This document shows positions 5,846-61,518 of a stretch of DNA of 64,000 nucleotides, piece after piece. Position 1 is the first letter of the stretch; every line of letters starts with the position of its first letter. A program made the translations under genes and the position numbers. Below the pieces are notes generated by a model. It made no database searches, was not told the DNA's origin, and saw nothing but the letters and a program-made list of their open reading frames with translations. The stretch is from Escherichia phage vB-Eco-KMB43: sequence record OR525698.1; one strand, given 5' to 3'.

Positions 5846-7330
5846 ATGCAAGATATTAAAATTCACTTTCTGAACTATTCCCATGTTCAAATTGAATGTA
5901 GCGATTCAATTTTATTAGAAATGCGAGATTATTTTAGTTTTGAAGTCGAGGGAGCGCGGTTTCAAAAAAGATTTAAGTATGGTGGATGGGATGGGCGTAT
6001 TCGTCTTTTAGACTACAACGGAAAGTTGCCTATCGGCCTAACTAAAACCGTGGGAATCTTCGCTAAAAATATGGGCTATAGCGTATGGGTAGATCCTCGC
6101 TTATTCGAAAAAGAACAAGTTACAGAAGAAGAAATTACAAAATGGTGTAATGACTTAGAATTATATTCCGGTGCTAACAGGATCACCCCGCACTGGTATC
6201 AATCAAAGGCTGTCTTTGAAGGTATCCATCATAAACGCCGTATGTTAGTTTTGCCTACGTCCGCTGGTAAATCTGCGATTGCTTGTATGTTGTCTCGCTG
6301 GTACTTAGAGAACTACGAAGGGAAAGTGCTGATCATCGTTCCTACCACGTCGCTAGTGCTGCAAATGCGTGATGACTTTGTTGATTATCGCCAGTTTCCT
6401 TATGAAGCAATTCATACTATCATGAGCGGTACTAGTAAACACGTAGGTGATCGCCTGATCGTTGTTAGTACGTGGCAATCAGCATGTAAACAGCCTCGTG
6501 AGTGGTTCCAACAATTCGGGATGGTTATTGTTGACGAATGTCACAAAGCCACTGCTAAAAACCTGCTAAACATCGTTACTGATATGGATCATTGCCAATT
6601 TAAGATCGGTATGACTGGTTCCCCTCGTGACGGGAAAGCTAACATGATGCAGTATGTCGGGCTTTTCGGTGATATTTCTAAGATCGTGAGTATTGACCGC
6701 CTGATGGAAGAAGGGCAGGTGACAAAACTGAAAATTAACTGTCTTTTCCTTCGTTATACCGATGAGGAATGTAGCGCGGTTAAGGGTAGAGAATATGCGG
6801 AAGAGATCAAGTATATTACGTCTAACCCACGACGAAATAAGTTTGCTTGTAATTTGGCGCTAAAACTCGCTAAGAAGGGCGAAAACGTATTCCTTATGTT
6901 CCGCAATACTAAGCACGGAAAACTTATGTATGACGCGTTACAGAAGGTACACGACAAGGTTTATTATATTGACGGTGGAGTTAAGACAGAAGAACGTGAT
7001 GAATTTAAGAAATTAGCGGAAGGGGAAACCGGGATCATTTGCGTTGCATCCTATGGTGTGTTCTCTACTGGTGTTTCAATTAAGAATTTGCACCATGTTA
7101 TTTTCGGTCATCCAGTGAAGGAATCAACTATCGTTCGTCAGAGTATCGGTCGTGCATTGCGTAAACATGGTTCTAAGGATATTGCAACGGTCTGGGATCT
7201 TATAGATCATCTGGCGGTGAAGACAAAGAGCAAGAATGCTAAGAAACAGTTTAGTCACCTTAATTATGCTCTTAAACACGCGCTTTTGAGGATACAGCTT
7301 TACAATACCGATAAATTTGAGTATGCTTAA
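5846..7330 (+). CDS. uvsW: UvsW DNA/RNA helicase; 3' end altered by a 55-bp tandem duplication
   Basis: MQDIKIHFLNYSHVQIECSDS... aligns with T4 UvsW (MDIKVHFHDFSHVRIDC...) including helicase motifs (PTSAGKS, DECH); ORF stops at TAA 7328-7330 inside the second repeat copy; native C-terminus ...EYVTKTIEI with stop at 7401-7403 lies downstream. Confidence 0.85.
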   Translation: MQDIKIHFLNYSHVQIECSDSILLEMRDYFSFEVEGARFQKRFKYGGWDGRIRLLDYNGKLPIGLTKTVGIFAKNMGYSVWVDPRLFEKEQVTEEEITKWCNDLELYSGANRITPHWYQSKAVFEGIHHKRRMLVLPTSAGKSAIACMLSRWYLENYEGKVLIIVPTTSLVLQMRDDFVDYRQFPYEAIHTIMSGTSKHVGDRLIVVSTWQSACKQPREWFQQFGMVIVDECHKATAKNLLNIVTDMDHCQFKIGMTGSPRDGKANMMQYVGLFGDISKIVSIDRLMEEGQVTKLKINCLFLRYTDEECSAVKGREYAEEIKYITSNPRRNKFACNLALKLAKKGENVFLMFRNTKHGKLMYDALQKVHDKVYYIDGGVKTEERDEFKKLAEGETGIICVASYGVFSTGVSIKNLHHVIFGHPVKESTIVRQSIGRALRKHGSKDIATVWDLIDHLAVKTKSKNAKKQFSHLNYALKHALLRIQLYNTDKFEYA

Positions 7331-7380
7331 ACACGCGCTTTTGAGGATACAGCTTTACAATACCGATAAATTTGAGTATG
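7271..7380. repeat. perfect 55-bp tandem duplication (2 copies) at the uvsW 3' end
   Basis: 7271-7325 and 7326-7380 are identical: CTTAAACACGCGCTTTTGAGGATACAGCTTTACAATACCGATAAATTTGAGTATG. Confidence 0.95.
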
Positions 7381-11352: not shown

Positions 11353-13058
11353 TGACAGAAACTAAACCTATGTTAAAATTTGTTGTTCCTGTAAAAAAAT
11401 TAGAGATAAACGGGAAACATATCAAGATCCCAAAAATGGGGATTAAGCAACATCGATTATTAAAAGATGTTCGTAGCTGTGATGAAACATTAAAGATTCT
11501 TCTTGATTCAATCTGTCCTGGGTTAAACGCTGCCGAGTCTGAATTGGTTATGCTTAACCTTTGTGCGTATGAAGAATTGCAAAAACTCAATAATTTCTCT
11601 TCTCAGATGAATGAGAAATTACGTGGTTTTGGTGTTATGATGGAACGTAGATTTGGTGTTGTCAGTAAAATGGCTAGCGGTATTGGTGCGATTGAAGAAG
11701 CACTGAAAAAACCGGAACAACCGCAAACAATGCCATCACCTCAGCCAGTTTTGCCTACTGTACCGGAACAGCCTAATAATGACAACTATCAAGGTCTTCC
11801 AAAGAAAAAACCAGATGTTGAGGAACGGAAGAAAAAGAACGCCGCAGATAAGCGCAATGCGGATTCTATGGAAAATCTTCTTAAAGTTGTTCGTGGAGGA
11901 TTTAAAGAAACCATAGGTATCTCTAATAAGGTCTTAGGGATGTTATTTAAGATCACCTTGACCGCTATGGCAGAAGCCGCAAAATGGGGCGCTATTTTGA
12001 TGGGTATTGTTTTTGCCATTGATACCCTTATGATTCATTTCAGATATTGGAGTGATTTATTCGAAACAAAATTTGATGAATTTATGGATAAAGCCGGAGA
12101 ATGGGCTGGACCCATTAGTGATATTCTAACAACTATTCGTCAAGTTCGAGATTATTGGTCTAAAGGTGAATATGGAGAATTAATTAAATCTCTTGTTATG
12201 GGTATTGGTGATGCATTCTATAAAACCTTTATCCAACTTGATCGAATTATCACTACTGGTATTGCTAAAATTCTTCGCATGATCCCTGGTATGGGTGATT
12301 ATGCCGATAAGTTAGAATATGGTGCTTTAAAATCTGCTGTCGCTCAAGGTTATACGCCAAATGAAAGAGAACTCGAATTAATGGATAAGGTCGAGTCTGA
12401 ACACGAAGAGGACAAATACGGGGAGCGTACTGGTTGGACCGGAAAAGCCCGTGATATTGGTGAGGCTATCGGTGACTCCATTAAAGATAAAGTTAACGAG
12501 GGTCTTGTTAGTCTGGGTTGGAGAGATCAAAAGGATGTTGACGCAGAGAAGCGACAAGAAGAATTAAAGCGCGGAGAATATGAGTCTGTTTCTGCTGAAC
12601 AACGATCTGCTAGTCGTAAACTTAGAATTAAAAGTGAGGGCGCGATCAACAATATTAATGAAGTTATGGAGAATTTGAGCGGTGACTATGACAAAGAAAG
12701 AATGGGAGAGTTGAAAAAGGATATTGATGTTTACCGTGAGCAAGTTCAAGATCCTACATTAGTTGAAAGTGATCGTTCTCAGTTAGAGCGTCTTATTGAA
12801 AAATTTGATGAGATGTATGCTGATAAAACTAAGGGTGTTGTGCAAACACAGCCGGTTCCTGCAACTGAAACGGAAACAGCAAAACAAGCGGAACGTACTG
12901 AACAAATGCAGAAACAAGCTGCAATCCAGAAACAAACGACAAATCAGACCTCAAACGTAAATAATACACAAATTGTAACAAACAATAGAACTATTAAACA
13001 GGGTGCACCAACAACTAGAATTGATGCCCCCGGTACAATTAATATGGGGAACTTTTAA
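11352..13058 (+). CDS. 29: baseplate hub / tail-tube length determinant gp29-like (568 aa), occupying the T4 gene 28 and 29 positions
   Basis: Single ORF starting with ATGA overlap on the gene 27 stop; Pro/Gln-rich and charged low-complexity stretches typical of tape-measure-like proteins; no separate gene 28 ORF found. Confidence 0.6.
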   Translation: MTETKPMLKFVVPVKKLEINGKHIKIPKMGIKQHRLLKDVRSCDETLKILLDSICPGLNAAESELVMLNLCAYEELQKLNNFSSQMNEKLRGFGVMMERRFGVVSKMASGIGAIEEALKKPEQPQTMPSPQPVLPTVPEQPNNDNYQGLPKKKPDVEERKKKNAADKRNADSMENLLKVVRGGFKETIGISNKVLGMLFKITLTAMAEAAKWGAILMGIVFAIDTLMIHFRYWSDLFETKFDEFMDKAGEWAGPISDILTTIRQVRDYWSKGEYGELIKSLVMGIGDAFYKTFIQLDRIITTGIAKILRMIPGMGDYADKLEYGALKSAVAQGYTPNERELELMDKVESEHEEDKYGERTGWTGKARDIGEAIGDSIKDKVNEGLVSLGWRDQKDVDAEKRQEELKRGEYESVSAEQRSASRKLRIKSEGAINNINEVMENLSGDYDKERMGELKKDIDVYREQVQDPTLVESDRSQLERLIEKFDEMYADKTKGVVQTQPVPATETETAKQAERTEQMQKQAAIQKQTTNQTSNVNNTQIVTNNRTIKQGAPTTRIDAPGTINMGNF

Positions 13059-14116
13059 TGAAAATTAGTGTTATCAATGATGCCGTTGATAGCTTTAAAG
13101 CGGGGGTTAAAACCTCCGCTGGTTTTACCTCAAAAAATAAAGGGAAAACATTAACCGCTCAATTCCCCGCTGAACGTGCTAGCGGTAATGATGCTAGCGG
13201 TTATTATATCAACGACTTATATAATAATGGTCTGTTATTCACTGCATACGATTACACCTCTCGTACTACTGGATCGCTGCGTGATTTCAGGAAAAAGAAA
13301 AATGTTGCTAGCGGTTTTGGTGGTAGCGTTAATATCGCTGGTTTTGATTTAAATTTGGGTGGGAGAAATGCTGCATTTGACCGAGAGGCAATTGCTAATA
13401 TTCTTCTTCCTCGTAGTCAATCTGACGTTGACGCTGCCAGCCATAAGTTTAATGATGTTGGTGAATCTGTTATTTCTCGCGGCGGTGGTACTTTAGGCGG
13501 TGCTCTTTCTAATATGGCATCTACTGCCGTTTTTGGTGGTATCGAAAGTATTACTGGTGGATACCTTGCCGATCACGGTGAACAGATTTATAATACTGCG
13601 CGAAGCATGTATGCGGGTGCTGATGCACGAACTAAAAACTACGTATGGCATCTAACCCCACGTAGTATTGAAGACCTTCGCAATATTCTGATCATATACG
13701 AAACGTTTTTAGAATTGTCTTATGGTTCTAGTGGCATTTCCAGCACCGCAAAAGAATTAAAAGCGGAAGTTGATGCGTGGTATAAAAATACACTATTGAG
13801 AAAATCCACCCCAGAGGAAGCGAAGAGAAATGATACTCTGTTTGAAGGGATCACCGATTTTCTATCAAACGTAATTACTGTATCTAACCCGACAATATGG
13901 ATGATCTCTAACTTCGGCAAGCGTACATCGTTTGAAGGGCGTAGCGATGCATTTGGTCCCGCTCAGATCTCAAGTGTACGTCTGGACAAGTCGCCTGATG
14001 GTAAGTTTAATGGCCTTGCTATTTCTCCTAACTTGCCGAGTACCTTTGTTCTGGAAGTATCATTTAGAGAGATCTTGACACTTTCCCGTGGTACTATATT
14101 TGGGAGTGCGGCATAA
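13058..14116 (+). CDS. 48: baseplate tail-tube cap gp48
   Basis: 352 aa ORF (T4 gp48 is 364 aa) in syntenic position; start overlaps the upstream stop. Confidence 0.75.
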   Translation: MKISVINDAVDSFKAGVKTSAGFTSKNKGKTLTAQFPAERASGNDASGYYINDLYNNGLLFTAYDYTSRTTGSLRDFRKKKNVASGFGGSVNIAGFDLNLGGRNAAFDREAIANILLPRSQSDVDAASHKFNDVGESVISRGGGTLGGALSNMASTAVFGGIESITGGYLADHGEQIYNTARSMYAGADARTKNYVWHLTPRSIEDLRNILIIYETFLELSYGSSGISSTAKELKAEVDAWYKNTLLRKSTPEEAKRNDTLFEGITDFLSNVITVSNPTIWMISNFGKRTSFEGRSDAFGPAQISSVRLDKSPDGKFNGLAISPNLPSTFVLEVSFREILTLSRGTIFGSAA

Positions 14117-14568
14117 TGTTTGATTTAAATGACTTTAACGAACAAGCCGCTAACCTTGACTTTCAGCGATCGAACTTATTCAGCGTGGCATTTGCCACCA
14201 CTCCAAGTAATAAGACACAAGCGATCCTAGAAAGTATGGGTGGTGCGGTATATGATATTATACCAAATGCATTAAATGACTATTTCGGGATTACTCGTGG
14301 TGATTATACTGACGCATTAACAAATCTTGCTGTGCAGGGTGTTAGGCGTGCTGTTGATTCATCTGGTGTCAAAAAGTATCTTTTAGGTGCAATGTCATCC
14401 CGCGTAGTTCAATCTCTTCTGGGGCAATTTGATGTTGGTACATATGCGCTTGACTGGTTCAATCTGGCATATAAGACAAGCGGTCTTCTGGTGTATGCTG
14501 TTAAGGTTCCAGAAAACAGATTGAATTATGAAATGGACCGTAACCACAATGCGCCAAACATTCGATTA
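14116..14568 (+). CDS. 54: gp54 baseplate tail-tube initiator, N-terminal segment (gene interrupted)
   Basis: MFDLNDFNEQAANLDFQRSNLFSVAFATTPS...NRLNYEMDRNHNAPNIRL aligns with T4 gp54 residues 1 to about 150; homology ends at about 14568 and the frame then runs into junk and a stop at 14646. Confidence 0.8.
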
Positions 14569-14945
14569 ATGGTAAGTGTCTGGAAGAAAAAGATGGTCTT
14601 AAGCTGTCTGATGTGTATATTTGTACAGAGACTGAATTTACTTTAAATGGTAAAGTCTTTAAATTTAAAAATCCAATGTATACTTCTGACCCCATTATCG
14701 ATGACGCTGATTTCTTGAGTCATCATTATCACGATCCTAGTGTAGACTTCCATGATTTCCCAGCTTTTATTATGGATTGGGCTACAGGATTAAGAAAAAC
14801 TATTGCACTGGATACACCGGAAGGTACTATCTATGGTGGAATTAACATATTGGATCGCCTATCATGAATGACGCATTAACATCATTTCGCGGGATGCGCA
14901 AGGAAGCGGAAGAAAACCCGATTGATAAACTTAACAAATTAGATA
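14569..14945 (+). other. about 375-bp intervening sequence splitting gene 54 (candidate intron or insertion)
   Basis: gp54 homology stops after NIRL and resumes at NGRDFDPLVLSFRMDSS in a different frame; the insert contains in-frame stops; boundaries good to about 3 nt. Confidence 0.7.
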
Positions 14946-15425
14946 AACGGACGTGATTTCGATCCGCTTGTATTGAGCTTTAGAATGGACTCTAGCGCAT
15001 CAAACTATCGAGCAATGCAGGATTGGGTTAACTCAGTAGAAGACCCCGTTACAGGGCTTCGTGCGCTTCCTGTTGACGTTGAAGCAGATATTCAGGTTAA
15101 CTTACATAACCGAATGGGAGTTCCTCACACGATCATGATGTTTAATGGTTGTGTTCCTGTTGGTGTGAGTGCACCGGAATTAACCTATGAAAATAACAAC
15201 GAAATAACAACATTCGATGTTACTTTCGCATATCGTTCTATGCAAACTGGTGCTGTAGGAGAGCAAGCCGCGCGAGAATGGATTGAGGATAAGGCAATAA
15301 ACGCAATAACAAACACTTTCGGCAATAATTTACTTGATAGTGGGTTATCTGCTGCTGGTAATGCTTTATCGCGTCTAAATGGCGTTGGTGGGCGTGTGGT
15401 GAATACTGTCACTAACTGGTTCTGA
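14946..15425 (+). CDS. 54: gp54 baseplate tail-tube initiator, C-terminal segment
   Basis: GRDFDPLVLSFRMDSSASNYRAMQDWVNSVEDPVTGLRALPVDVEADIQVNLH... aligns with T4 gp54 ITGRELDPLVISFRMDSEACNYRAMQDWVNSVQDPVTGLRALP... to the C-terminus. Confidence 0.8.
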   Translation, partial: NGRDFDPLVLSFRMDSSASNYRAMQDWVNSVEDPVTGLRALPVDVEADIQVNLHNRMGVPHTIMMFNGCVPVGVSAPELTYENNNEITTFDVTFAYRSMQTGAVGEQAAREWIEDKAINAITNTFGNNLLDSGLSAAGNALSRLNGVGGRVVNTVTNWF

Positions 15426-26651: not shown

Positions 26652-26657
26652 ACTTTT

Positions 26658-35258: not shown

Positions 35259-35408
35259 TTATGCAACCGCAAACATCAACATTTGAACATTCTTGGCTGT
35301 CTGGCTTTCAAAGTTCTGACATTCTTTGATAATGTCCTCTACTTTCTCGCCGGAGATCTCCGCGTAAGTTTCGATTGCCATTTTCAGTACCGCGTCAAAG
35401 TTGTTCAT
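35259..35408 (-). CDS. small hypothetical protein (49 aa)
   Basis: Manual translation MNNFDAVLKMAIETYAEISGEKVED...; GGAGAATCAAATG context. Confidence 0.4.
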   Translation of the reverse strand: MNNFDAVLKMAIETYAEISGEKVEDIIKECQNFESQTAKNVQMLMFAVA

Positions 35409-35437
35409 TTGATTCTCCTTAAAGTTTATTTCGTTTC

Positions 35438-35478
35438 GATGGGGGTATATTAATACCCCCGTTATTCAGTGTCAACTA
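35438..35478 (-). promoter_or_regulatory. early promoter cassette
   Basis: GGGGGTATATTAATACCCCC palindrome; shares an identical 27-nt stretch CGTTATTCAGTGTCAACTACTTTTTAA with the cassette at 35720-35758. Confidence 0.55.
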
Positions 35479-35694
35479 CTTTTTAATGACAATTTCGAAT
35501 TTTGCTACCTTGCGTCCTCGTTTATTGAAAGCAACCCACGGACGGTTTTCAATATAGAACAATTCTTCGCCAATAATGAATACTGGCTGATTGTAAAGGC
35601 GACCCATCAGGTCACGCTGGCGAATGGTAGTAGATTCGTATACTTCGCCTACTACAAAGTGTTTGCTGATAGAGTCGGTGCAAGTAAATTTCAT
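35476..35694 (-). CDS. hypothetical protein (72 aa)
   Basis: Intact ORF flanked by promoter cassettes. Confidence 0.5.
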   Translation of the reverse strand: MKFTCTDSISKHFVVGEVYESTTIRQRDLMGRLYNQPVFIIGEELFYIENRPWVAFNKRGRKVAKFEIVIKK

Positions 35695-35719
35695 TTTGAT
35701 TCTCCTTTGTTTCGTTTCG

Positions 35720-35758
35720 ATGGGAGTATCTTACTACCCCCGTTATTCAGTGTCAACT
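35720..35758 (-). promoter_or_regulatory. early promoter cassette
   Basis: Near-duplicate of the cassette at 35438-35478. Confidence 0.55.
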
Positions 35759-35763
35759 ACTTT

Positions 35764-35982
35764 TTACTTGTTGTATTCATTCCACCATTGGGTGAGCTTA
35801 TCAATTATTTTTGTGTTTCTATCCAACTTATCCCACCGTTTTCGAGGGTTTATCAACCGTAATAGGTAAGGTGTACTTGTTAAGTGAACTCGGTCAATAT
35901 AGTGATTGATGTACTGCTTTTCGATTCTAAGTTTCATCTTTTTACGATGAAAATATGCAATGACTTGTTCTTCTGTTTCCAT
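35764..35982 (-). CDS. hypothetical protein (72 aa)
   Basis: Intact ORF with GGAGGAACATATG context. Confidence 0.5.
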   Translation of the reverse strand: METEEQVIAYFHRKKMKLRIEKQYINHYIDRVHLTSTPYLLRLINPRKRWDKLDRNTKIIDKLTQWWNEYNK

Positions 35983-43685: not shown

Positions 43686-44015
43686 TCAAACCAGCTTGAG
43701 ATAGTTTTCGTTAACGTTTTCTTCTGTGATCTCGGTTTTAAACTCATTACCAACATCAGGAGAAACATAATAGCGTTCGGAATAATCACGCCACATTTTC
43801 AGTAGGCTGACACCAACATTAACACCATTTTCCCAGAAACGGAAGATAATTTTATTTGCGGTGTAGCGGTAATCGCTTTGAATCAAGCTGCCATCACCGC
43901 GACGTGATTCATAAACCGTAATACATTCACGGTTAGCGGCTTTAAGACATTCTTCAATAGTGCCGCATGAGATAATTTCGGTTGAGTCGTTTACGATTTG
44001 TTCTACAGTCCACAT
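43686..44015 (-). CDS. hypothetical protein (109 aa)
   Basis: Intact ORF downstream of a promoter cassette. Confidence 0.5.
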   Translation of the reverse strand: MWTVEQIVNDSTEIISCGTIEECLKAANRECITVYESRRGDGSLIQSDYRYTANKIIFRFWENGVNVGVSLLKMWRDYSERYYVSPDVGNEFKTEITEENVNENYLKLV

Positions 44016-44037
44016 AATATAATCCTCTCTTTGTTTC

Positions 44038-44070
44038 GATGTGTGTATTATACATTACCACATCAGCATG
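44038..44070 (-). promoter_or_regulatory. early promoter cassette
   Basis: Reverse complement TTGACA-N16/17-TATAAT with conserved leader. Confidence 0.55.
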
Positions 44071-44103
44071 TCAACACCTTTTTCATAAAATTTTAGGCAA
44101 TAA

Positions 44104-44124
44104 AAAGCCTCCCCGAAGGAAGGC
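44104..44124 (-). terminator. candidate terminator downstream of gene 32
   Basis: GCCTCC-CCGAAG-GAAGGC hairpin flanked by A-runs on the plus strand. Confidence 0.55.
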
Positions 44125-44136
44125 TTTAAAAATTCA

Positions 44137-45160
44137 TTACAGATTCAGAAGTGAGTCCAGGTCATCCAGATCAGAAGCGGAGGAAGTACCGCCACCCAGA
44201 TCCAGCGATGCCATCAGGTCATCAGCGGAAGAATCTAACGCCGTGCTAGCTGCGTTAATACCAACTACAGTGCTAGCTGCGGTAATACCAGAATCGAATG
44301 CATTCATCTGTGCGTCAAAATCGTCAAGCTGGCTGTTAATCGCTGCCGCAGCACTGGAAGCCGCAGCGCCAGCTACCATAGAAACGCCCATAGTTTTCTT
44401 AAATTTGGTTTCCAGTTCATCGAACGGTTTAAACTGGCTAGGCGCTACAATCTCACCCAGATCAACCATGTTTTCCATCAGATATTTCTGATATGCTTCG
44501 TCTTCAATTTTCGGAAGCTGTGATTGCTGCATGAAACGAGAATCATCATAGTTCTGGTGTTTATCAACCTTCTTAGCTTTCAGGAGGAAGTTAGCACCGG
44601 AGAACACACAAGTTACATCTACCGGAACTTCGCCCATGTCGGTATTCACGTTCACCATTGCAACGATCTTATCATAAATTTTCTGACCGAAGCGGAATTT
44701 GAATACCTTACCTTCATTTTCTGGTGCTTGAGGATCTTTCAGTACCAGAATATTTGCGTAGTAAGACGCTTTACGCTTAATCAGTTGCCATTCGGTTTTA
44801 TCGGTATTGTACAGGTCTTTTTCGTTAATATATTTGCACACAGGGCAAGAATCAAAATCACCGTGGGTGCTGGAGCAGTTTTCCCAATACCATTTGCCAT
44901 TAACTTTGAAGGAATGGTTTACCAGTTTCACAATCGGCAGACCGTCTTCTGTCTTAGACGGCAGGAAGCGAATCAGGGCTTCACCGTTACCTGCTGCATC
45001 AGTCTTAATCTTCCACTCTTTCGGATCTTCTTTGGAGAAACCGTTGCCACCTTTCAGTGTTAATCTTCCACTCTTTCGGATCTTCTTTGGAGAAACCGTT
45101 GCCACCTTTCAGTGAGGCCAGTTGAGCTTGCAGTTTGGAAGAATCTTGGCGTTTAAACAT
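44137..45160 (-). CDS. 32: gp32 single-stranded DNA-binding protein; reading frame broken near the 5' end by a 55-bp tandem duplication
   Basis: From ATG 45158-45160: [33 protein letters not shown] (T4: [33 protein letters not shown]), then frameshift and stop at 45005-45007; main frame (44137-45105) carries the rest of gp32 including zinc-site residues [10 protein letters not shown]. Confidence 0.85.
45005..45114. repeat. perfect 55-bp tandem duplication (2 copies) inside the gene 32 N-terminal coding region
   Basis: 45005-45059 and 45060-45114 identical: TTAATCTTCCACTCTTTCGGATCTTCTTTGGAGAAACCGTTGCCACCTTTCAGTG. Confidence 0.95.
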
Positions 45161-45193
45161 ATTCACTATTCCTTCTTTTGATTAATTTACTAG

Positions 45194-45226
45194 ACTATTA
45201 TACAGATTTAAATTTACTTGTCAACT
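45194..45226 (-). promoter_or_regulatory. sigma70-like promoter upstream of gene 32
   Basis: Reverse complement TTGACA-N16/17-TATAAT about 35 nt upstream of the gene 32 ATG; overlaps the 3' end of gene 59. Confidence 0.55.
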
Positions 45227-45901
45227 ATTTGTTTCGGCTTTTAATTGAGATATTTCTTTACACTCTTTAACTACTTTAACAAATAATGCTCTTGCTTTTG
45301 CGGCGTCAATAACAAGTAGTTTCTTGTACGCCTTCATTTTAACACTATAAGTTTGCCAAATCAAGTCTTTGGCTACCTTGTCGTGTTCGTCGATTATATT
45401 TAGAAAGCTATCTAACAACATAAACGACTCAAACGATATAATCCGATTTTGCAGTAGTTTAAAGATACCGCTTGTTTCGGTTGTGGGATTGTATGTAATT
45501 AGCTCTTTAAGAGTAACCCCGCGTTTCTCGGAGAAGTATACCAGACTTTTAATGTCATCGTCAAATCGTGTTGCTGCATCGGTTATCTTTCCTATGTATT
45601 CCATATAAAAGCCGTATGCGTCAACATCAGTGATTTCACCTACCCATGCATCGGTATTAGCTACCAGATTGCTTAGGAATAGGAAGTATAATTCTCTTAG
45701 ATTGTACTTTTCCGCTAATTTTGCGAAATAATACTTATCTCTGCGTTTATTGAATGCGGCATCAGACAACCGCATCCTCCAATTGTATTTTACGCAATCA
45801 TAACGCCCGTTCATGTGAGCTTTCATCATGCAATATAACATATACACAGATTTAGCATTAATTCGCATATCTGGATCTGGAGGAAGACGGTTTCTGATCA
45901 T
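45221..45901 (-). CDS. 59: gp59 helicase loader
   Basis: GKSVYMLYCMMKAHMNGRYDCVKYNWRMRLSDAAFNKRRDKYYF...IISFESFMLLDSFLNIIDEHD matches T4 gp59. Confidence 0.9.
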   Translation of the reverse strand: MIRNRLPPDPDMRINAKSVYMLYCMMKAHMNGRYDCVKYNWRMRLSDAAFNKRRDKYYFAKLAEKYNLRELYFLFLSNLVANTDAWVGEITDVDAYGFYMEYIGKITDAATRFDDDIKSLVYFSEKRGVTLKELITYNPTTETSGIFKLLQNRIISFESFMLLDSFLNIIDEHDKVAKDLIWQTYSVKMKAYKKLLVIDAAKARALFVKVVKECKEISQLKAETNS

Positions 45902-45910
45902 ACATACCCC

Positions 45911-46180
45911 TTAAATATCGAGAGTGTTGGTCGGTTCGTCGATCACTCCCTTCCTGAGCGTTCTATTTACTATACATTCTTGTGTGATCTTGTCAATAAT
46001 GGACACCGGAATATATTTCTGATAGTGACCATATTCGATAGAGTTTTCCTCTACAAACTGAGTGGTCGCTTCAAGATAAGTCAATCCCTCTTCAACAACC
46101 AGTTTTTCGATTGCAAGACCGTTTGCTGTTTTATTCGCGGCTTTTACCGCATGTTCATTAAGCATTGAACACCCGATCAT
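45911..46180 (-). CDS. 33: gp33 late-transcription co-activator
   Basis: ...EEGLTYLEATTQFVEENSIE...YIPVSIIDKI... matches T4 gp33 (...EEFGMSYLEATTAFLEENSIPE...FIPSGIIEKI...). Confidence 0.8.
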   Translation of the reverse strand: MIGCSMLNEHAVKAANKTANGLAIEKLVVEEGLTYLEATTQFVEENSIEYGHYQKYIPVSIIDKITQECIVNRTLRKGVIDEPTNTLDI

Positions 46181-53210: not shown

Positions 53211-53332
53211 TATACAGTTGGTTAAAACATAACCAAAACGAAGAAAGATCTTTAGAATAATAGAAAATTTGTTTCGGTTAAAAAGTAGTCAGTGCCTACG
53301 GCACGTCGCGAAGCGATATTTTGTTAACATTC

Positions 53333-53340
53333 TATAAATA
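53333..53340 (+). promoter_or_regulatory. T4-type late promoter TATAAATA upstream of gene 36
   Basis: Exact TATAAATA 34 nt upstream of the gene 36 ATG. Confidence 0.6.
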
Positions 53341-53373
53341 CTCGGAACTATAACTAATTTTTGAGGTTACTTT

Positions 53374-54864
53374 ATGGCAGATTTGAAACATGGATCTACT
53401 GTAGGCGGATCTCCCATTTGGACGCAAGGAAACTTGACGATCCAGCCAGCGGGTGATCAGCTTTTCTATAAAGGTCATAAAATCTATACCGCTTTTGATA
53501 AACCTTCGGCTGCCGATTTTGATGCTGTTAGTGCATCTGAGGGTGGTACATTTCAGAAACTGGTCCATTTTGAGGAAGGTTTAAGCGTAGGTAGCGCATC
53601 CGGTGGAGAAACCAAAAAGAACGGGATCTTTAAAGGAAAGAGCGATGCGGCTAACTTTGATGGTGTAAGTTGGGGTTTGCATTCGTGGAAATCTATTGGT
53701 TTTGTTAATGCTCGTGATGATGTTATCATGGCTTATATTGACACTACCACAGGTGATTTTAAAACTAAAGGGACCATCGAAGGGACAACCATTAAAGACA
53801 CTGGTCAACGCGTCTATAGTCCTGTTAATAAGCCGACAAACAATGATTTGGATTTGGTGTCTCGTCGCGGTGATACTCTCACGGGAACGTATAATTTAAA
53901 CACGGCTACATTTAAACTTGATGTTAATTCGAAAATACTTGCGCGGGATCGTGGTTTCATTGCTTTCGATTCTAATGCCATTTATTTTGGAAATAGTCTT
54001 GATACTTTGGCATTCAGTAGCAAAAACGAGCCGACAATTTCTGTTAATGGCAAGGCAGGTAGATTCTACCACACCAACAATAAACCGACTAAAGCCGATG
54101 TTGGACTAGGTAATGTCACCAATGATGCACAGGTTAAACGTGCTGGTGATATTATGGAAGGTAACTTGCAAGCGCCTAGAATGTTGGCGACAAACGATCC
54201 TGCTGGTCCTAATGAATTGGTTCGTTTGAGCTACTTTGAGAAAAAATCAATGGTAGCAAATCCAACAATCATTGGAAACGTTGATTGGAACACTCTTATT
54301 AATCGCGGTATCTATCGTGTGGAAAATGCTGGATCAGGTACTAATAAACCGTCTGATAGCTATTATAACGGCGTTTTGATGGTATATCGCCCAGAAGATG
54401 CGGTCGGTACTCGTCGAATTGTTCAGGTATACTATCCTGAATCTATTGATCATCCGATGTGCTGGCGTTCTTGTTCTAATGAATCATGGACCGCATGGAA
54501 CTATGTAGATCACCGTAAATTGGCTGATGCTCGCTATGTTAATGTGACTGGCGATACCATGAGAGGTGCTTTGACAGTTCCCGCTGCAAACGGCGTTCGT
54601 ACCGCAAAAGCTAACTATAATGGTGATAATTGCTACGCTGGACTTAATAGCTTAGATGGCACAGCAATGATTCATCGTGTTAGTGATATTAAAGCGCACG
54701 AGAAACTAGGCATCACACATGATTCTAAAATTATTTTCGTTAAATCACGCAACAATACTCAGGACACCGATACATTTGAATTATACCACGAAGGACACAA
54801 ACCAACTCCTGATGATGTTGGCGCTGTTCCGCTTAATGCGGTAATTGATTTTGGTACTTTCTAA
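53374..54864 (+). CDS. 36: long tail fibre distal connector gp36 (extended, 496 aa)
   Basis: MADLKHGSTVGGSPIWTQGNLTIQPAGDQLFYKGHKIY matches T4 gp36 MADLKVGSTTGGSVIWHQGNFPLNPAGDDVLYKSFKIY; more than twice the T4 length. Confidence 0.85.
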   Translation: MADLKHGSTVGGSPIWTQGNLTIQPAGDQLFYKGHKIYTAFDKPSAADFDAVSASEGGTFQKLVHFEEGLSVGSASGGETKKNGIFKGKSDAANFDGVSWGLHSWKSIGFVNARDDVIMAYIDTTTGDFKTKGTIEGTTIKDTGQRVYSPVNKPTNNDLDLVSRRGDTLTGTYNLNTATFKLDVNSKILARDRGFIAFDSNAIYFGNSLDTLAFSSKNEPTISVNGKAGRFYHTNNKPTKADVGLGNVTNDAQVKRAGDIMEGNLQAPRMLATNDPAGPNELVRLSYFEKKSMVANPTIIGNVDWNTLINRGIYRVENAGSGTNKPSDSYYNGVLMVYRPEDAVGTRRIVQVYYPESIDHPMCWRSCSNESWTAWNYVDHRKLADARYVNVTGDTMRGALTVPAANGVRTAKANYNGDNCYAGLNSLDGTAMIHRVSDIKAHEKLGITHDSKIIFVKSRNNTQDTDTFELYHEGHKPTPDDVGAVPLNAVIDFGTF

Positions 54865-54868
54865 TTCT

Positions 54869-54890
54869 AGCGGGGATTATCCCCGCTTTT
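54869..54890 (+). terminator. rho-independent terminator after gene 36
   Basis: AGCGGGGA-TTAT-CCCCGCT hairpin followed by TTTT. Confidence 0.65.
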
Positions 54891-54931
54891 CTAAATAATA
54901 TTATTCTAACAACCGTTAAGGATTTTATAAA

Positions 54932-57730
54932 ATGGCAGATTTACAGAGAATCCAATTTAAAAGAACAAGTACGGCAGGTCGCAAGCCGGATGCGAATATT
55001 CTAACTCCGGGTGAACTTGCTATTAACCTAGCGGATCGAGAACTATATACAAAAGATGACAGCAATAATGTAATTACTTTGGGACACTTTCGCGGTGAGT
55101 TGCCATCTGATGCAAATTTAGATAATTATGGACCTACTGGTAAATTTACTGGCGTTTGGTCTAAATCAACTTCAACAAATGCGCAGCCAGCAAATAAATT
55201 CCCAGAAGAGAATGCTGTAGGTGTATTAGAAGTATTTGTGGCTGGTCAATTTGCTGGCACTCAGCGTTATACTGTTCGGTCTGGTAACGTTTATATCCGT
55301 TCTTTGTCTGCGAAATGGAATGGCGTAGATGGTCCATGGGGTCCGTGGCGCAATATTCAAACTGGCACACGTCCACTATCAACTACACTAGACTTGAATA
55401 CTTTAGGTGATGCTTCTCATTTTGGGTTATGGCGAAATAGTTTAAGTTCCATTGCATCATTTTCTCGAAATTACCCAGAAGAAGGTGGTCTCGCGCAAGG
55501 TCTTTTAGAAATTTATGAAGGTGGTAACTATTCTCGCACGCAACGTTATACTACCCGAATGGGTGTTGTATATGTTCGTTGTCTTGCTGGTGCATGGGAT
55601 CCAGAAGCTCCGAATTGGGGACCGTGGCAACAAGTAGGTATGGTTACTCCAAACACATTCTATGACGGGGATCTTAATAATTTTCGTTCTCCTGGCTTGT
55701 ATAACATTTTAGGGACTGATGCCGTTATTAACCGTCCAGTTGCAGAAGGTGTTCCGGTTGAGATGACCGGATTGCTTGAGGTTAAACAGCGTGCTTCCGG
55801 TGCCGCTATTTTCCAACGTTTCACTACCGCAGGAACGGGTGCAACTACGCGATCTCGCGTGTTTGAACGTGCGATGACAAATAACATCTGGGGAAATTGG
55901 TACGAAGTATATACGTCCTATTCTATGCCGATCACTCTGGGTATGGGTGGTGTTAAATCTCAATTAGCGGAGCTAGACTGGCAAACCTTTGATTTTGTCC
56001 CTGGTAGTATGTTTAGTGTTCCTTTGAACAAAATAAAGAATATGCCAGCAAATATGGATTGGGGGACGATTGACGGAAACTTGGTTATGTTTTCTGTCGG
56101 TCCTAGCGAACATACCGGAACGGGTCGAACTGTTCAAGTGTGGCGCGGTACTGTATCTCAGGCGAACTATCGTTATTTCGTTGTTCGTATCGCTGGTAAT
56201 CCAGGAAGTAGGACTAATACTTGTCGTCGTGTTGTTGTGGAAGATGGTCGCCACACATGGACAGCGCAACAAGATTTTAATGGTGCAGTTAACTTCGGTG
56301 CTCCTACCAATTTTAACTCTACTGTTAACCTTAATAACACTACCACATTTAAAACAGAAGTTAAATTCCGCTCATCTAATGCATTCCGTATGTATGGCGG
56401 TAATTTTGGCACAATTTTCCGTAATGATGGTGAAAGTCTTTATATTCTTTCCACCGACGAAAATGATCAAGATGGAAACTTTAATACAAATAGACCTTTC
56501 CGCTATCAATTAAAAACTGGCGATGTTACTTTGGGTGGCACTAGCGGTGCTAACGCTTTAGTATTAAAAGGCGGTTCTCTTGCTGCTACCTTTAGCGGTG
56601 ATGTTAATTTAAGTAAAGGTACGCTGACGTTTGAAGCGGGTGGTAAGCAATCACGCGATTATTTCCGGTTTAATCATTGGGGTGATAGCAATAACGCTCG
56701 TGATAACATTATTCAGTTAGAAGATAGTAAAGGCGCTCATTTTTCCACTGAACGTACTTTAGCGACGGGCGCAATTAAAACTAAGTTCTTTGGTGAAGTT
56801 GAATCCGATGGTCGATTGACTATTAAACGTCCTGGTGATGCTATTGTATTATCAACAACTGCTGGTAATGCTTTGCATATTCGCGGTGATATAGACGGGA
56901 GTGGTAACTGGTATATTGGCAAGGGTGGTGCTGATAATTCGCTAGCATTTTATAGCTATGCTACTCAGGCGGCAGTACATATAACAAACAATGGTGAGAT
57001 TGCGTTAAACCCGCAAAATACCGCAATGGTTAACGTTAACCGCGACCGTGTACACATTAACGGTTCTGGATGGATTGCTAGACAACCGGGTGATTGGGGC
57101 AACCAATGGCGAGTAGAAGCTCCATTATTCGTTGATCATGGTTATGTTGGTCAAGATAGTTATTATCCTATTCTTAAAGCAAGAAGCGTTATAACCAATC
57201 AAGGATATAGCACCGCTGTTGACTTTGGTATGCGTCGTATTCCATCACAGTGGGGGCAAGCAATCATTCGCGTCGGATCCACGGAGGCTTCTCCTGATGC
57301 TGGACACCCACAAGCTATATTTGAATTCCATCATGATGGATTCTTTTATACACCAGGAAATGGTAGCTTTAGCGATGTGTATATTCGTTCTGACTCCCGT
57401 CTCAAGATTAATAAAGAAGAATTAGAATATGGAGCGGTCGAAAAAGTTTGCCGACTGAAAGTTTATACATACGATAAGGTTAAGTCTATTAAAGATCGTA
57501 GTGTTATTAAACGTGAAGTTGGTATTATTGCTCAGGATCTTGAAAAAGAATTACCGGAAGCTGTGTCTAAAGTTGAAGTTGATGGTTCTGATGTTCTGAC
57601 AATTTCTAACTCGGCAGTGAATGCTCTTTTAATTAAGGCTATTCAGGAAATGAGTGAAGAAATTAAAGAATTGAAAACGCCTCTCTTTACTAAAATTGCT
57701 CGCAAAATTAGTAAATATTTTAAATTCTAA
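54932..57730 (+). CDS. 37: long tail fibre distal subunit gp37 with C-terminal intramolecular chaperone (peptidase S74-like) domain
   Basis: MADLQRIQFKRTSTAGRKPDANILTPGELAINLADRELYTKDDSNNVITLG matches the T4 gp37 N-terminus; C-terminal ...IRSDSRLKINKEELEYG...VGIIAQDLEKELPEAV... matches the endosialidase-chaperone signature. Confidence 0.85.
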   Translation: MADLQRIQFKRTSTAGRKPDANILTPGELAINLADRELYTKDDSNNVITLGHFRGELPSDANLDNYGPTGKFTGVWSKSTSTNAQPANKFPEENAVGVLEVFVAGQFAGTQRYTVRSGNVYIRSLSAKWNGVDGPWGPWRNIQTGTRPLSTTLDLNTLGDASHFGLWRNSLSSIASFSRNYPEEGGLAQGLLEIYEGGNYSRTQRYTTRMGVVYVRCLAGAWDPEAPNWGPWQQVGMVTPNTFYDGDLNNFRSPGLYNILGTDAVINRPVAEGVPVEMTGLLEVKQRASGAAIFQRFTTAGTGATTRSRVFERAMTNNIWGNWYEVYTSYSMPITLGMGGVKSQLAELDWQTFDFVPGSMFSVPLNKIKNMPANMDWGTIDGNLVMFSVGPSEHTGTGRTVQVWRGTVSQANYRYFVVRIAGNPGSRTNTCRRVVVEDGRHTWTAQQDFNGAVNFGAPTNFNSTVNLNNTTTFKTEVKFRSSNAFRMYGGNFGTIFRNDGESLYILSTDENDQDGNFNTNRPFRYQLKTGDVTLGGTSGANALVLKGGSLAATFSGDVNLSKGTLTFEAGGKQSRDYFRFNHWGDSNNARDNIIQLEDSKGAHFSTERTLATGAIKTKFFGEVESDGRLTIKRPGDAIVLSTTAGNALHIRGDIDGSGNWYIGKGGADNSLAFYSYATQAAVHITNNGEIALNPQNTAMVNVNRDRVHINGSGWIARQPGDWGNQWRVEAPLFVDHGYVGQDSYYPILKARSVITNQGYSTAVDFGMRRIPSQWGQAIIRVGSTEASPDAGHPQAIFEFHHDGFFYTPGNGSFSDVYIRSDSRLKINKEELEYGAVEKVCRLKVYTYDKVKSIKDRSVIKREVGIIAQDLEKELPEAVSKVEVDGSDVLTISNSAVNALLIKAIQEMSEEIKELKTPLFTKIARKISKYFKF

Positions 57731-57766
57731 CAACAAGGGGGCATTGCCCCCTTTGGAGTATAAATT

Positions 57767-58549
57767 ATGGCAGTAGTTGGTGTTCCTGGTTGGATTGGAA
57801 GTTCAGCCGCAAATGAAACAGGACAAAGATGGATGAGTCAAGCGGCTGGTCAATTAAGATTGGGTGTTCCTTGCTGGATGATTCAATTTGCAGGTCGCTC
57901 GCGAGAAATTATTCATACACTTGGTGCAGACCATAACTTCAACGGTCAGTGGTTCCGTGATAGATGCTTTGAAGCAGGTAGTACACCTATAGTGTTTAAT
58001 ATCACTGGAGATTTAGTATCATATTCTAAAGATGTTCCTTTATTCTTTATGTACGGAGATACACCGAATGAATATGTTCAGTTGAATATACATGGCGTAA
58101 CGATGTATGGTCGTGGCGGGAATGGCGGTAGCAATGGTCCTGGATCAGCCGGGGGGCATTGTATTCAAAATGATATTGGTGGGAGACTAAGAATTAATAA
58201 TGGTGGAGCTATTGCAGGTGGCGGTGGCGGTGGCGGTGGTGGGTATTATTCTCCTTTTTCACAAATGAGATTAACCTTTGGCGGTGGCGGTGGGCGTCCG
58301 TTTGGTGCGCCGGGCGGATCTATTGATATGCAATCAGGCGCAACTGCTGGTACTCTTTATGCGCCCGGTTCGGGGTCCGTGAACGGTATCTATAATGGTG
58401 GAAGCGGTGGTGAGGTAGGCGCCGCAGGAGGTAGATGTAATATTCGTGGTCAAGGATCTGAATATAATGGCGGCGATTCTGGATATGCTGTTATAGGGTC
58501 TTCTCCAACGTGGCAAAATCGCGGAGCTATTTACGGACCGGCTGTTTAG
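57767..58549 (+). CDS. 38: gp38-type tail fibre adhesin with glycine-rich motifs
   Basis: 260 aa; poly-Gly islands ([37 protein letters not shown]) typical of T2/T6-type gp38 adhesins; position after gene 37. Confidence 0.75.
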
Positions 58550-58612
58550 ACGCAATTATAAAAAGAATTAAGGAAAACTCCCACGGAAGGGAACTACTAA
58601 GGAGAAACGGCT

Positions 58613-58852
58613 ATGGTCTATAATATCGTCATTGGTGCTTTGTCTAATTTCGGAATGAAACTATTGTCAAAGTTAATTAGTGAAAAGATGCTCACTAAAA
58701 TTTTCTTCTATTGCGCTCGTCGTCTTGCGGCTTATACCAATACGCCAATTGATGATCGTTTTGTGGAAGAACTTTATAAGGAGTTTAATAAAGATCAGTC
58801 AGAAGATAGTAACGAGCAAGATAAACCTAATGATAGTCAACTACCTAAATAA
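58613..58852 (+). CDS. hypothetical protein (79 aa) between gene 38 and holin
   Basis: Intact ORF with hydrophobic N-terminal segment and acidic C-terminus. Confidence 0.45.
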   Translation: MVYNIVIGALSNFGMKLLSKLISEKMLTKIFFYCARRLAAYTNTPIDDRFVEELYKEFNKDQSEDSNEQDKPNDSQLPK

Positions 58853-58885
58853 GAGTACACTGTCATAGTTATCTTAGGGCATTAT

Positions 58886-59542
58886 ATGCAAGTTTCTGAA
58901 AAAGGGAAAGACTTTGCTATCTCAAATGTCCTGCGCGCTATTTTCACAACTAAAAGCACGGAGTTGCTCGTACTTCGTGTTTTTGCTGCCGTCGTGTTGT
59001 CCATATTAGCATTTGTCGTTTATAGTAAAAACGAGTTATTTGCGCTTTATAAAGAGACTCGTTATGAGACTTATGCTCACATTCTCCAGGTAGAGAAAGA
59101 CCGCAATTTTGATAATGCAGCACAGGAGCAGTTACAGATAGTTCATGTGTCGGCTGATGCCGATTTTTCTGCTGTTTTTAGTTTTCGTCCGAAAAACCTA
59201 AACTATTTTGTTGATTTGGTGGCATATGAAGGAAAGTTACCGCATACAATCGATGAAAAAAATTTAGGCGGATTCCCTATCAATAAAACGAGTGAAGAAT
59301 ATCGTAGGCATCTTTTAGGTAAATCATATTTTACCGATAAAGATTTCCAGTATATTCCATCAAGAGAAAAGAAATTAGAGAGTATCGATATAGGGTTTAT
59401 GTATTCTTGCCCTATATTCAATCTCGATAATGTCTATTCTGGTAGTATCTCCATTGCATGGAAGAATAAACCGGATATTGACATTGAGAATTTAGATACT
59501 CTTTGCAATCAATCTGCCAGAATCCTCGGTAGGATTAGATAA
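58886..59542 (+). CDS. t: holin T
   Basis: 218 aa; ...EQLQIVHVSADADFSAVFSFRPKNLNYFVDLVAYEGKLP...YSCPIFNLDNVYSGSI...ARILGR matches T4 holin. Confidence 0.9.
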   Translation: MQVSEKGKDFAISNVLRAIFTTKSTELLVLRVFAAVVLSILAFVVYSKNELFALYKETRYETYAHILQVEKDRNFDNAAQEQLQIVHVSADADFSAVFSFRPKNLNYFVDLVAYEGKLPHTIDEKNLGGFPINKTSEEYRRHLLGKSYFTDKDFQYIPSREKKLESIDIGFMYSCPIFNLDNVYSGSISIAWKNKPDIDIENLDTLCNQSARILGRIR

Positions 59543-59550
59543 CTTAAAGG

Positions 59551-59580
59551 GGGAAGCCTTTCGGCCTCCCCTTCTTTTTT
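59551..59580 (+). terminator. rho-independent terminator after t
   Basis: Imperfect GGGGGAAGCC...GGCCTCCCC hairpin followed by TTCTTTTTT. Confidence 0.6.
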
Positions 59581-59827
59581 ATTGACGCATAGACGCGCCT
59601 GAATCGCATTTTGACGCTGTATGATGAAAACATGTAGCGTACCAGTCATCGGCTTGTTTGTCTTCGTCAGAAAACGCGTAATTTCGTTGTATGCCGTTTT
59701 CTACTTTGACCAGTGCAATAGCTGTTTCTGGAAGATCAATCAATCGGACAAAATCACCATCTTCCCACTCTACACGAGCAATATCATAGCCCATCTCAAA
59801 GTATACAATCGCTTGTTCTAATTTCAT
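59579..59827 (-). CDS. hypothetical protein (82 aa)
   Basis: Intact ORF; start overlaps the upstream stop. Confidence 0.5.
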   Translation of the reverse strand: MKLEQAIVYFEMGYDIARVEWEDGDFVRLIDLPETAIALVKVENGIQRNYAFSDEDKQADDWYATCFHHTASKCDSGASMRQ

Positions 59828-60153
59828 TCTGGAAACTTCCCGTAAACATTCTCTGCCAACTTACGTGCATCGTTTACAATATCTTTCATGTAATGACTAT
59901 AATTTTTAGCTAGATCAATGATGCAATCAACAAAGAAGTAATAGCGTCGCAGTGCTACCAGCTCAACATCTTCAAGATGACCATTTTCTCCAATCGCTGA
60001 AATATGTTTAAATTCCTTTCGGATCGCGTCCATCGCTACATTAACTTCTTTTATAATATCTTTCGTATTATATGCACCTCGACTAATCAAAATTTTGGTT
60101 AGGTCTTCTGCTTTTTCGTGAAAGTTGTCAATTTCAAACTCGATCATAATCAC
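59824..60153 (-). CDS. hypothetical protein (109 aa), paralogous to ORF 60262-60594
   Basis: C-termini ...DARKLAENVYGKFPE and ...DEARIMTENIFGKF align between the two ORFs. Confidence 0.55.
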   Translation of the reverse strand: MIMIEFEIDNFHEKAEDLTKILISRGAYNTKDIIKEVNVAMDAIRKEFKHISAIGENGHLEDVELVALRRYYFFVDCIIDLAKNYSHYMKDIVNDARKLAENVYGKFPE

Positions 60154-60261
60154 CTCTCATAATTTCACGCTGTTGTGTCAACATTTTTTCGTGGTTTGCT
60201 AATTCTATACCTTGTAATAGCATAACCAGTGCAATTTTCAATGATTCATCATCTTTCATAA

Positions 60262-60594
60262 TCAAAATTTACCGAAAATATTCTCTGTCATAATTCTTGC
60301 TTCGTCGATTATTTTCGTCATGTTCATGGTGTAGTTATGATCATTTAGTGCTTTAATGACAACGAGCAAGGAATCTAAAAACACTCGATACCGGGTATAT
60401 TCTACGCTATTTGTGAATACCGATGTTTTCTCTACTTTATCGATCAGATAGCCTAAAACCGATAGAGCCTCGTTTACTTCCCTTGTTACTTTATCGGCGC
60501 TAAACAACACCGGATAAAGACGCGGTGTGATTAACCGCGCTGCCTCTTTCAATTCGGTCGCTTTCCATGATTCATATTTGTCATAGTTAAACAT
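60262..60594 (-). CDS. hypothetical protein (110 aa), paralogous to ORF 59824-60153
   Basis: See paralogue; intact ORF. Confidence 0.55.
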   Translation of the reverse strand: MFNYDKYESWKATELKEAARLITPRLYPVLFSADKVTREVNEALSVLGYLIDKVEKTSVFTNSVEYTRYRVFLDSLLVVIKALNDHNYTMNMTKIIDEARIMTENIFGKF

Positions 60595-60606
60595 TGTATA
60601 ATGTCC

Positions 60607-60939
60607 TTACAGATGAAAACCTGTTACAATCACCGCATCGATCATACCGCTAGGAATAAACGGTTCACCCTCTTTTATTTCAACTTTGAATTGATGCCAT
60701 TTCGCTAATACTTCTTCCAGTACACCCAGCGATTCGGCGTCTGCTTTGGTGTCATCTGTCACCCATTCCGGATTCATGAGAGCATAGTTTACATAGTCCA
60801 TTTCTGGGGTCATGTCATCAATGTTAATATATTTGTAGTTGACGCGTTTCAGAATTTCAAATTCTTTATTATCAACCTGTACCATGTATAATTCAGTAGT
60901 TTCTGGAATCAGTTCCCACACAATCAGTACATTTTTCAT
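60607..60939 (-). CDS. hypothetical protein (110 aa)
   Basis: Intact ORF. Confidence 0.5.
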   Translation of the reverse strand: MKNVLIVWELIPETTELYMVQVDNKEFEILKRVNYKYINIDDMTPEMDYVNYALMNPEWVTDDTKADAESLGVLEEVLAKWHQFKVEIKEGEPFIPSGMIDAVIVTGFHL

Positions 60940-60947
60940 AGTTCACC

Positions 60948-61316
60948 TCACTTAACAAAGATTTTCTTTAATGCTTTCAGGATCGTTGCTTCCGGTGCTT
61001 CCTCCGGTGGAGGAAGCAATTCTACCACTTCCTCTTCCAACTCGATATAGTCTACCAGATATTCTACATAGAATGCAAGTGCTTCCATGAAATTAAATGC
61101 TACATCCGATTCACCACAAGCGCCTACATGCATTGTATAAACATCACTGCGATCAAGTTTGTGGATGCTTCCCAGATAGTTCCGGTTATACCAGACTTCC
61201 CACACTTTCAGCTTTCCGGTTTTGGTTGCTGTTTTATAATCGGTTTCGTAATGATGCAATTGACGTTGCAGATCATTGATAATAACACATTTTTCGTAAT
61301 TGTTTTGAATTTCCAT
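60948..61316 (-). CDS. hypothetical protein (122 aa)
   Basis: Intact ORF. Confidence 0.5.
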   Translation of the reverse strand: MEIQNNYEKCVIINDLQRQLHHYETDYKTATKTGKLKVWEVWYNRNYLGSIHKLDRSDVYTMHVGACGESDVAFNFMEALAFYVEYLVDYIELEEEVVELLPPPEEAPEATILKALKKIFVK

Positions 61317-61326
61317 GATGTAATCC

Positions 61327-61518
61327 TCACTTATCGTTAAGAAGTTCTAAAACTTTCTGTCGTACTTTGTCAATATTAGTTGATTCAAAAACTGTATGGT
61401 ATCCCCAACTTTGACCGTATGATCGCGAGCAATCCCCATATCCCCATTGTTCAACCTGATAGTATTCAAGGAATGGGTGCTGCCGAACTATGATACCATC
61501 GCGATTAAAAATTACCAT
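61327..61518 (-). CDS. hypothetical protein (63 aa)
   Basis: Intact small ORF. Confidence 0.4.
   Translation of the reverse strand: MVIFNRDGIIVRQHPFLEYYQVEQWGYGDCSRSYGQSWGYHTVFESTNIDKVRQKVLELLNDK

Follow-up and report, generated by a model that had tools for sequence, protein, structure and literature searches.

The exact tandem duplication of 55 nucleotides that interrupts gene 32 in the window (the whole 64,000-nt stretch analysed here, from the Escherichia phage vB-Eco-KMB43 record OR525698.1) is most likely not a real feature of the phage. On balance, we lean towards reading the extra copy as a fault that arose when the sequence was built and that does not belong to a replicating phage genome, with an untrimmed k = 55 overlap as its likeliest route. 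The duplication is exact and private, and it is accompanied in the same sequence by two other private lesions, one of which is also 55 nt long.

The two 55-nt units lie head-to-tail inside gene 32 and are 100% identical, a perfect repeat of a length that cannot arise by chance in 64 kb. Tandem Repeats Finder (TRF) reports it at 44999-45114 (period 55, 2.1 copies, score 225), and a separate repeat finder agrees, returning two perfect head-to-tail copies at 45005-45059 and 45060-45114. Gene 32 runs on the minus strand from an ATG at 45160-45158, and the unit (coding strand, CACTGAAAGG...GGAAGATTAA) starts and ends on second codon bases, those of codons 16 and 34 respectively. The resulting arrangement is as follows:

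45060..45114, minus strand: copy 1 of the unit, on the 5' side as gene 32 is read, covering codons 16-34
45005..45059, minus strand: copy 2 of the unit, the same as copy 1, read from the ATG one base out of frame
45005..45160, minus strand: 51-codon truncated frame from the genuine gene 32 start, 33 gp32 residues followed by 18 out-of-frame residues
44137..45059, minus strand: rest of gene 32 (codons 16-322 plus stop), open in the single-copy frame

The frame that opens at the conserved gp32 start is interrupted: from the ATG at 45160 it ends after 51 codons, at a TAA contained in the last bases of copy 2 (45007-45005), and Pfam recognises no family in this 51-codon frame. The 306 codons that follow the duplication can be read without interruption in the frame of a single-copy gene, and they form part of a downstream frame of 322 open codons running from a GTG at 45105 to the stop at 44137. 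This GTG is the only upstream in-frame start available to the downstream frame, and no Shine-Dalgarno-like sequence lies ahead of it (CTCACTGAAAG, then GTG). The sequence-only reading is borne out on all of these points, its coordinates included: it had described the exact head-to-tail duplication, the shift of frame that prevents any full-length gp32 from being made from the ATG, the remainder of gp32 lying open in the frame restored by one copy, and the GTG without a ribosome-binding site as the sole in-frame restart.

Both the 322-aa ORF and a one-copy reconstruction match the gp32 family PF08804 (E about 3.6e-51 to 3.7e-51, 174.6 bits against a cutoff of 26.8). The one-copy product can furthermore be aligned with full-length T4 gp32 (8gme_A) over residues 1-298, the N-terminal cooperativity segment included (E 6.6e-107), a full-length collinearity that holds only when one 55-nt copy is removed. 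Judged by these matches, the gene 32 product is a clear gp32 orthologue. The gp32 core structures solved so far start at residue 21-22, so that the duplication extends from the N-terminal cooperativity segment into the first part of the core. No second gp32-like gene is present within the window. Gene 59 lies upstream, and on the downstream side a small ORF is followed by frd and td; the neighbours on both sides (gene 59; small ORF, then frd) are those seen in JSE and RB49. Two signals flank the gene:

45197..45224, minus strand: sigma-70-type consensus promoter of gene 32, TTGACA-16-TATAAT
44108..44122, minus strand: terminator-like hairpin and T-run just past the gene 32 stop

The annotation of RB49 places an early promoter at the position equivalent to 45197..45224, and the gene 32 leader and its AAGGA ribosome-binding site are identical to those of the relatives. 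With one copy taken out, comparison of 44100-46100 with LF73P4 gives 5 differences in 1946 bases, each at a third codon position of gene 32. This pattern indicates that gene 32 was kept intact by purifying selection until very recently, and it does not look like an old pseudogene. In T4, T2 and RB69, gp32 is known to regulate its own translation by way of a pseudoknot in the leader. The sequence-only reading had invoked such autoregulation together with the essentiality of gp32; the latter stands, since gp32 is essential in T4 (PMC3014915), whereas the former does not transfer simply to this phage, because RB49, the type phage of the group, is reported to lack a conserved gene 32 leader pseudoknot and an A+U-rich operator (PMC3014915).

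Three further observations concern other ORFs. The 109-aa ORF downstream of gene 32 (43686-44074, minus strand) has its own perfect TTGACA-16-TATAAT promoter at 44074-44047; its protein is 100% identical to the JSE homologue, and a related contig lists no Pfam family for it. RB49 carries a 1.46-kb endonuclease gene directly 3' of gene 32 (L003 3229-4686) that is missing from the window (44016-44136) and from JSE, a presence/absence polymorphism of a probable homing endonuclease. Likewise, the window has nothing that corresponds to the homing endonuclease gene located between nrdB and nrdA in JSE (L006 40499-41146).

The phage to which the window belongs is RB49-like, of the T4 type (genus Krischvirus, family Straboviridae). 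Its nearest genomes are 95-99% identical to it over its length, the best matches to the gene 32 region being Krischvirus LF73P4 (99.5%), W115, JSE and RB49; no record identical to the window was found. Comparison with closely related genomes, the check that the sequence-only reading had proposed, returned a single copy in 58 full-locus records and four run assemblies. All 58 of the related phage records, a count that takes in only relatives covering the query in full, match over 1143-1146 bases where the window has 1199-1201, and alignment with LF73P4, JSE and RB49 opens a clean gap of 55 nt in flanking sequence that is otherwise identical. The four independent Logan run assemblies encode an identical gp59 and carry one copy of the unit in gene 32, and an exact look-up of gp59 gave five contigs, each of them single-copy at gene 32 and none the same as the window. 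The two-copy junction itself has no exact match in the viral, metagenome and genome contig collections. In addition, neither the two gene 32 ORF products nor two tail-fibre proteins had an exact match on look-up, searches of E. coli genome and plasmid collections were equally without a match, and these look-ups yielded no second, independent sequence of the phage itself. These comparisons indicate that the duplication is not a feature of the Krischvirus group and is private to the window sequence.

The closest public record, OZ035795.1 (Krischvirus LF73P4), is unannotated and is collinear with neither the window nor JSE. Window positions 1-27053 correspond to about 10.9-37.7 kb on its plus strand, 26966-53327 to 56.7-83.3 kb on its minus strand, and 53218-64000 to 130.7-141.5 kb, again on the minus strand, and the ends of these blocks overlap by 88 nt (window 26966-27053) and 110 nt (53218-53327). 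The record looks like a chain of contigs in a non-biological order and not like a finished genome; its overlapping blocks indicate that contig chains with untrimmed overlaps do occur in Krischvirus.

The first of the two accompanying lesions is a duplication of the same length in a different gene:

7271..7380, plus strand: another perfect tandem duplication, located at the 3' end of uvsW and made up of 2.0 copies of a 55-nt unit, detected by TRF

Across the whole window, TRF reports exactly two long tandem repeats (7271-7380 and 44999-45114), both of them perfect and with a period of 55, while JSE and LF73P4, examined over about 136 kb, have no long tandem repeats of this type. The uvsW duplication replaces the last 7 residues, VTKTIEI, by a single A and a stop (...FEYVTKTIEI becomes ...FEYA). 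Where the window has 901 bases, the 53 related records that include the full locus match over 846; the 11 relatives aligned from among these 53 each have one copy, and the junction has no exact match in viral and metagenome contigs. Since the two sites are unrelated, their identical 55-nt length points to a fixed technical parameter and not to two mutations. That the units might be copies of a dispersed element was considered and ruled out, each 55-mer occurring solely at its own site in the window.

The second accompanying lesion affects baseplate genes:

11568..14948, plus strand: rearranged stretch in which genes 28, 29 and 54 are broken, recognised from the gene order in JSE and LF73P4

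A block of about 385 bp, made up of the end of gene 28 and the start of gene 29, is found at 14563-14948 inside gene 54 and not before 11568, which places it 3 kb downstream of its position in JSE and LF73P4. A base-by-base comparison with these two relatives shows that 158 bp belonging to gene 29 and 5 bp belonging to gene 54, present in both, are also missing from the window. The joins at 11568, 14563-14565 and 14948 overlap by merely 1-3 nt, and the products of the rearrangement are an in-frame gene 28-29 fusion ORF (11352-13060) and a truncated gp54. In the 54 relatives that cover the query of this stretch, the span is about 165 bases longer and aligns in four pieces; the 14565 junction has no exact match in viral contigs, and neither the uvsW duplication nor the rearrangement occurs in any relative searched. 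When the JSE ORFs of at least 90 aa were translated and compared with the window, changes of frame or order appeared at three places and at no others.

Two further observations emerged from the comparison with JSE. The window segment 62135-62599 (minus strand) matches only the first 167 residues of a 272-aa hypothetical protein of JSE (L007 13267-14085), with 84% identity, either through natural divergence in the variable early region or through another truncation. Dispersed repeats of about 70-90 nt, with 80-90% identity to several intergenic sites of JSE, lie between small early genes, and presumably resemble the promoter-stem-loop cassettes of T4-type phages; their sites in the window are:

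19418-19507: dispersed repeat
21800-21886: dispersed repeat
25421-25498: dispersed repeat
26581-26660: dispersed repeat
35404-35485: dispersed repeat
35689-35766: dispersed repeat
62609-62681: dispersed repeat

It is established from T4 biology that a genome without gp32, gp29 and gp54 cannot replicate or build a baseplate. With all three products lost, the sequence as written cannot be that of a viable clone; a clone carrying all three private lesions could not form plaques. Of the options offered by the sequence-only reading, error is accordingly the one that the data favour: the duplication is absent from relatives, it has a uvsW twin of the same length, and it shares its molecule with a rearrangement that breaks three baseplate genes. 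Selected disruption, which had been suggested alongside deliberate disruption, is implausible for a gene that is essential and present in a single copy.

The breakpoints are informative about how a second copy could have come about. At gene 32 there is 0 nt of adjacent microhomology, and a 5-nt match is reached only beyond one mismatched base: ACTGA occurs twice, 55 nt apart, in wild-type gene 32, one base in from the breakpoints, a coincidence with a probability of about 0.008 in simulation. Slippage on ACTGA predicts G as the junction base, which is C. At uvsW, explicit comparison gives 0 nt of microhomology on either side. A duplication by microhomology or slipped-strand pairing would call for a short direct repeat exactly at both unit ends, which neither gene has, and the gene 32 junction has C and not the predicted G. 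The duplication could still be a real, very recent and spontaneous one, produced by illegitimate recombination or template switching. It would then reside in a defective genome or a sub-population, kept going by wild-type phage infecting the same cells or by recombination that often removes one copy. We regard this as quite unlikely. The copies are identical, as a new event predicts, the nearby ACTGA repeat lends the idea some weight, and T4-type phages recombine efficiently, classical T4 genetics including duplication frameshifts between short repeats. The consensus of a propagated lysate, however, should show the viable majority. Moreover, the junction base does not agree with slippage on ACTGA, the same molecule would have to have acquired a same-length twin in uvsW without microhomology and to have lost genes 28, 29 and 54, and the mutation would be lethal, gp32 being essential in T4 (PMC3014915) and the window containing a single gene 32.

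The positions that border the repeated units were also compared among relatives. Both flanks of the gene 32 55-mer (45004 and 45115) vary, in an alignment in which 4.6% of sites vary overall; of the uvsW flanks, 7270 never varies and 7381 does so in 1 of 11 relatives. The 55-mers are thus bounded by variable sites on both flanks at gene 32 and weakly so at uvsW. The idea that two strains meet at the gene 32 junction found no support, the density of SNPs relative to LF73P4 being unchanged at 45060.

An assembly fault is the reading that we prefer. By default, SPAdes (for short reads) and metaSPAdes use k-mers of up to 55. Neighbouring contigs in a k = 55 de Bruijn graph, or the two ends of a circular contig, would share exactly 55 nt, and in the mechanism that we infer, two pieces of such a graph would have been joined end to end with the shared overlap left in; the true gene 32 would then contain one copy and encode an ordinary gp32 of 322 residues. 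A k-mer set of 21, 33 and 55 has been used for phage assembly (PMC9319786), and in a SPAdes assembly of a T4-like phage, overlapping ends of 55 bp had to be trimmed (PMC8483715). In line with this mechanism, the length of the repeat equals the assembler k and recurs at 7271-7380, both repeats consist of two perfect copies (period 55, 100%, 2.0-2.1 copies), and the second copy is absent from independent sequences of the locus. The blunt breakpoints, with uvsW lacking microhomology and C at the gene 32 junction, fit an artefact as well, and a 55-mer located between variable sites, as in gene 32, is what may be expected of a graph node bounded by strain differences. Some findings run counter to it: base-level quality elsewhere is high, with all other JSE genes of at least 90 aa intact; the variation at the uvsW flanks is weak; and the SNP density shows no jump at 45060. 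Furthermore, the joins of the rearranged baseplate stretch overlap by 1-3 nt and not by 55, so that a k-mer join fails there and either a second kind of error or editing after assembly is needed.

Editing of the sequence file after assembly, by hand or by a program, as in the stitching of fragments, a design file for genome reconstruction or a deliberate in-silico perturbation, would yield both 55-nt duplications together with the cut-and-paste at 11568-14948. It would be equally non-biological, differing only in the agent, and we hold it to be possible, if doubtful. It would explain why three structural lesions of different kinds stand amid otherwise clean natural sequence, with blunt breakpoints overlapping by 0-3 nt, why the gene 32, uvsW and 14565 junctions are unmatched in the collections scanned for each, why the four products looked up, two from gene 32 ORFs and two from tail-fibre genes, are all absent from the records, and also the rearrangement, which a k-mer overlap leaves unexplained. 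No editor can be identified from the sequence, however, and editing gives no reason for the value 55, whereas assembler defaults supply one. Both gene 32 flanks, in addition, fall on naturally variable sites, an outcome that random editing gives in about 0.2% of cases.

The sequence-only reading had further raised an unusual expression mechanism, an idea that nothing was found to support: there is no conservation, no RNA structure and no stop or slippery-site context. If the duplication were real and full-length gp32 were made by recoding, either the ribosome would leave a codon in copy 1 and land on its counterpart 55 nt downstream, in the manner of T4 gene 60 bypassing, or tRNA-Phe would slip by +1 from UUU to UUC at CGG-UUU-CUC (codons 40-42) in copy 2. 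We consider such recoding extremely improbable. Its attractions are formal: each codon in copy 1 is repeated 55 nt further on, 55 equals 3x18+1, so that a hop or a +1 shift restores the frame, and a UUU-C site is present in the shifted frame. These signals, however, would pre-exist by accident in ordinary coding sequence. No stop follows any candidate take-off codon in copy 1, and no stem-loop is found, the region folding worse than shuffled controls (z = +2.1). Rfam offers no family match either; its only hit, HIV_FE, stays below threshold (24 bits, with 45 required) and lies on the terminator hairpin in the opposite strand, and we take it as chance. Programmed recoding sites are conserved, yet the second copy occurs in 0 of 58 full-locus relatives and 0 of 4 run assemblies, and the same 55-nt event is found in uvsW without any such rationale. 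A +1 frameshift of the prfB type, in which a slippery codon precedes a stop or a hungry codon and a stimulator resembling a Shine-Dalgarno sequence lies about 3 nt upstream, does not fit either: UUU-CUC is without a following stop, AGGUGG lies 6 nt upstream, and the site is not conserved. That the two-copy allele is nevertheless real in growing phage, through an efficient unprogrammed hop or +1 shift or through a duplication that is constantly recombined away, strikes us as very improbable.

Were the duplication real, an essential replication protein that is needed stoichiometrically would be expressed across a frameshift, a new case of recoding in the phage group of gene 60 bypassing, and a real two-copy allele would show, as an experiment of nature, how T4-type phages cope with duplications that shift the frame of an essential gene. 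On our preferred reading of an assembly fault, the sequence contains at least three structural faults (7271-7380, 11568-14948 and 45005-45114), which would introduce false pseudogenes (gene 32, uvsW and genes 28, 29 and 54) into annotation and comparative work; the recurring length of 55 nt provides a simple signature by which such faults can be spotted in other records.

Among known systems, the spontaneous duplication frameshifts between short direct repeats of classical T4 rII genetics resemble the gene 32 case in being tandem duplications of tens of bases that shift the frame, with a 5-nt repeat near the gene 32 breakpoints. The rII mutants, however, were recovered in a gene that is not essential, with the repeat right at the junction, whereas gene 32 is essential and its repeat is displaced by one mismatch, and the uvsW twin is without any repeat. 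Bypassing of the 50-nt gap in T4 gene 60 offers another parallel, since there too a T4-type phage has matched codons, some 50 nt apart, between which a hop would restore the protein. It depends on a stop immediately behind the take-off codon, on a stem-loop at that site and on a signal in the nascent peptide (PMC3014915), while in the gene 32 duplication no stop, no take-off stem-loop, no nascent-peptide signal and no conservation were seen. T4 gp32 itself shares with the window the PF08804 domain, the full-length match of 8gme_A and the same neighbours, and differs in that the ORF of the window is interrupted at codon 34; its leader pseudoknot operator is reported to be absent in RB49-type phages (PMC3014915). 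Finally, the untrimmed k = 55 overlaps of SPAdes usually appear as a single overlap at the ends of a circular contig, whereas here two internal sites are affected alongside a rearrangement, and they agree with the gene 32 case in being exact two-copy, head-to-tail repeats whose length is that of a default k.
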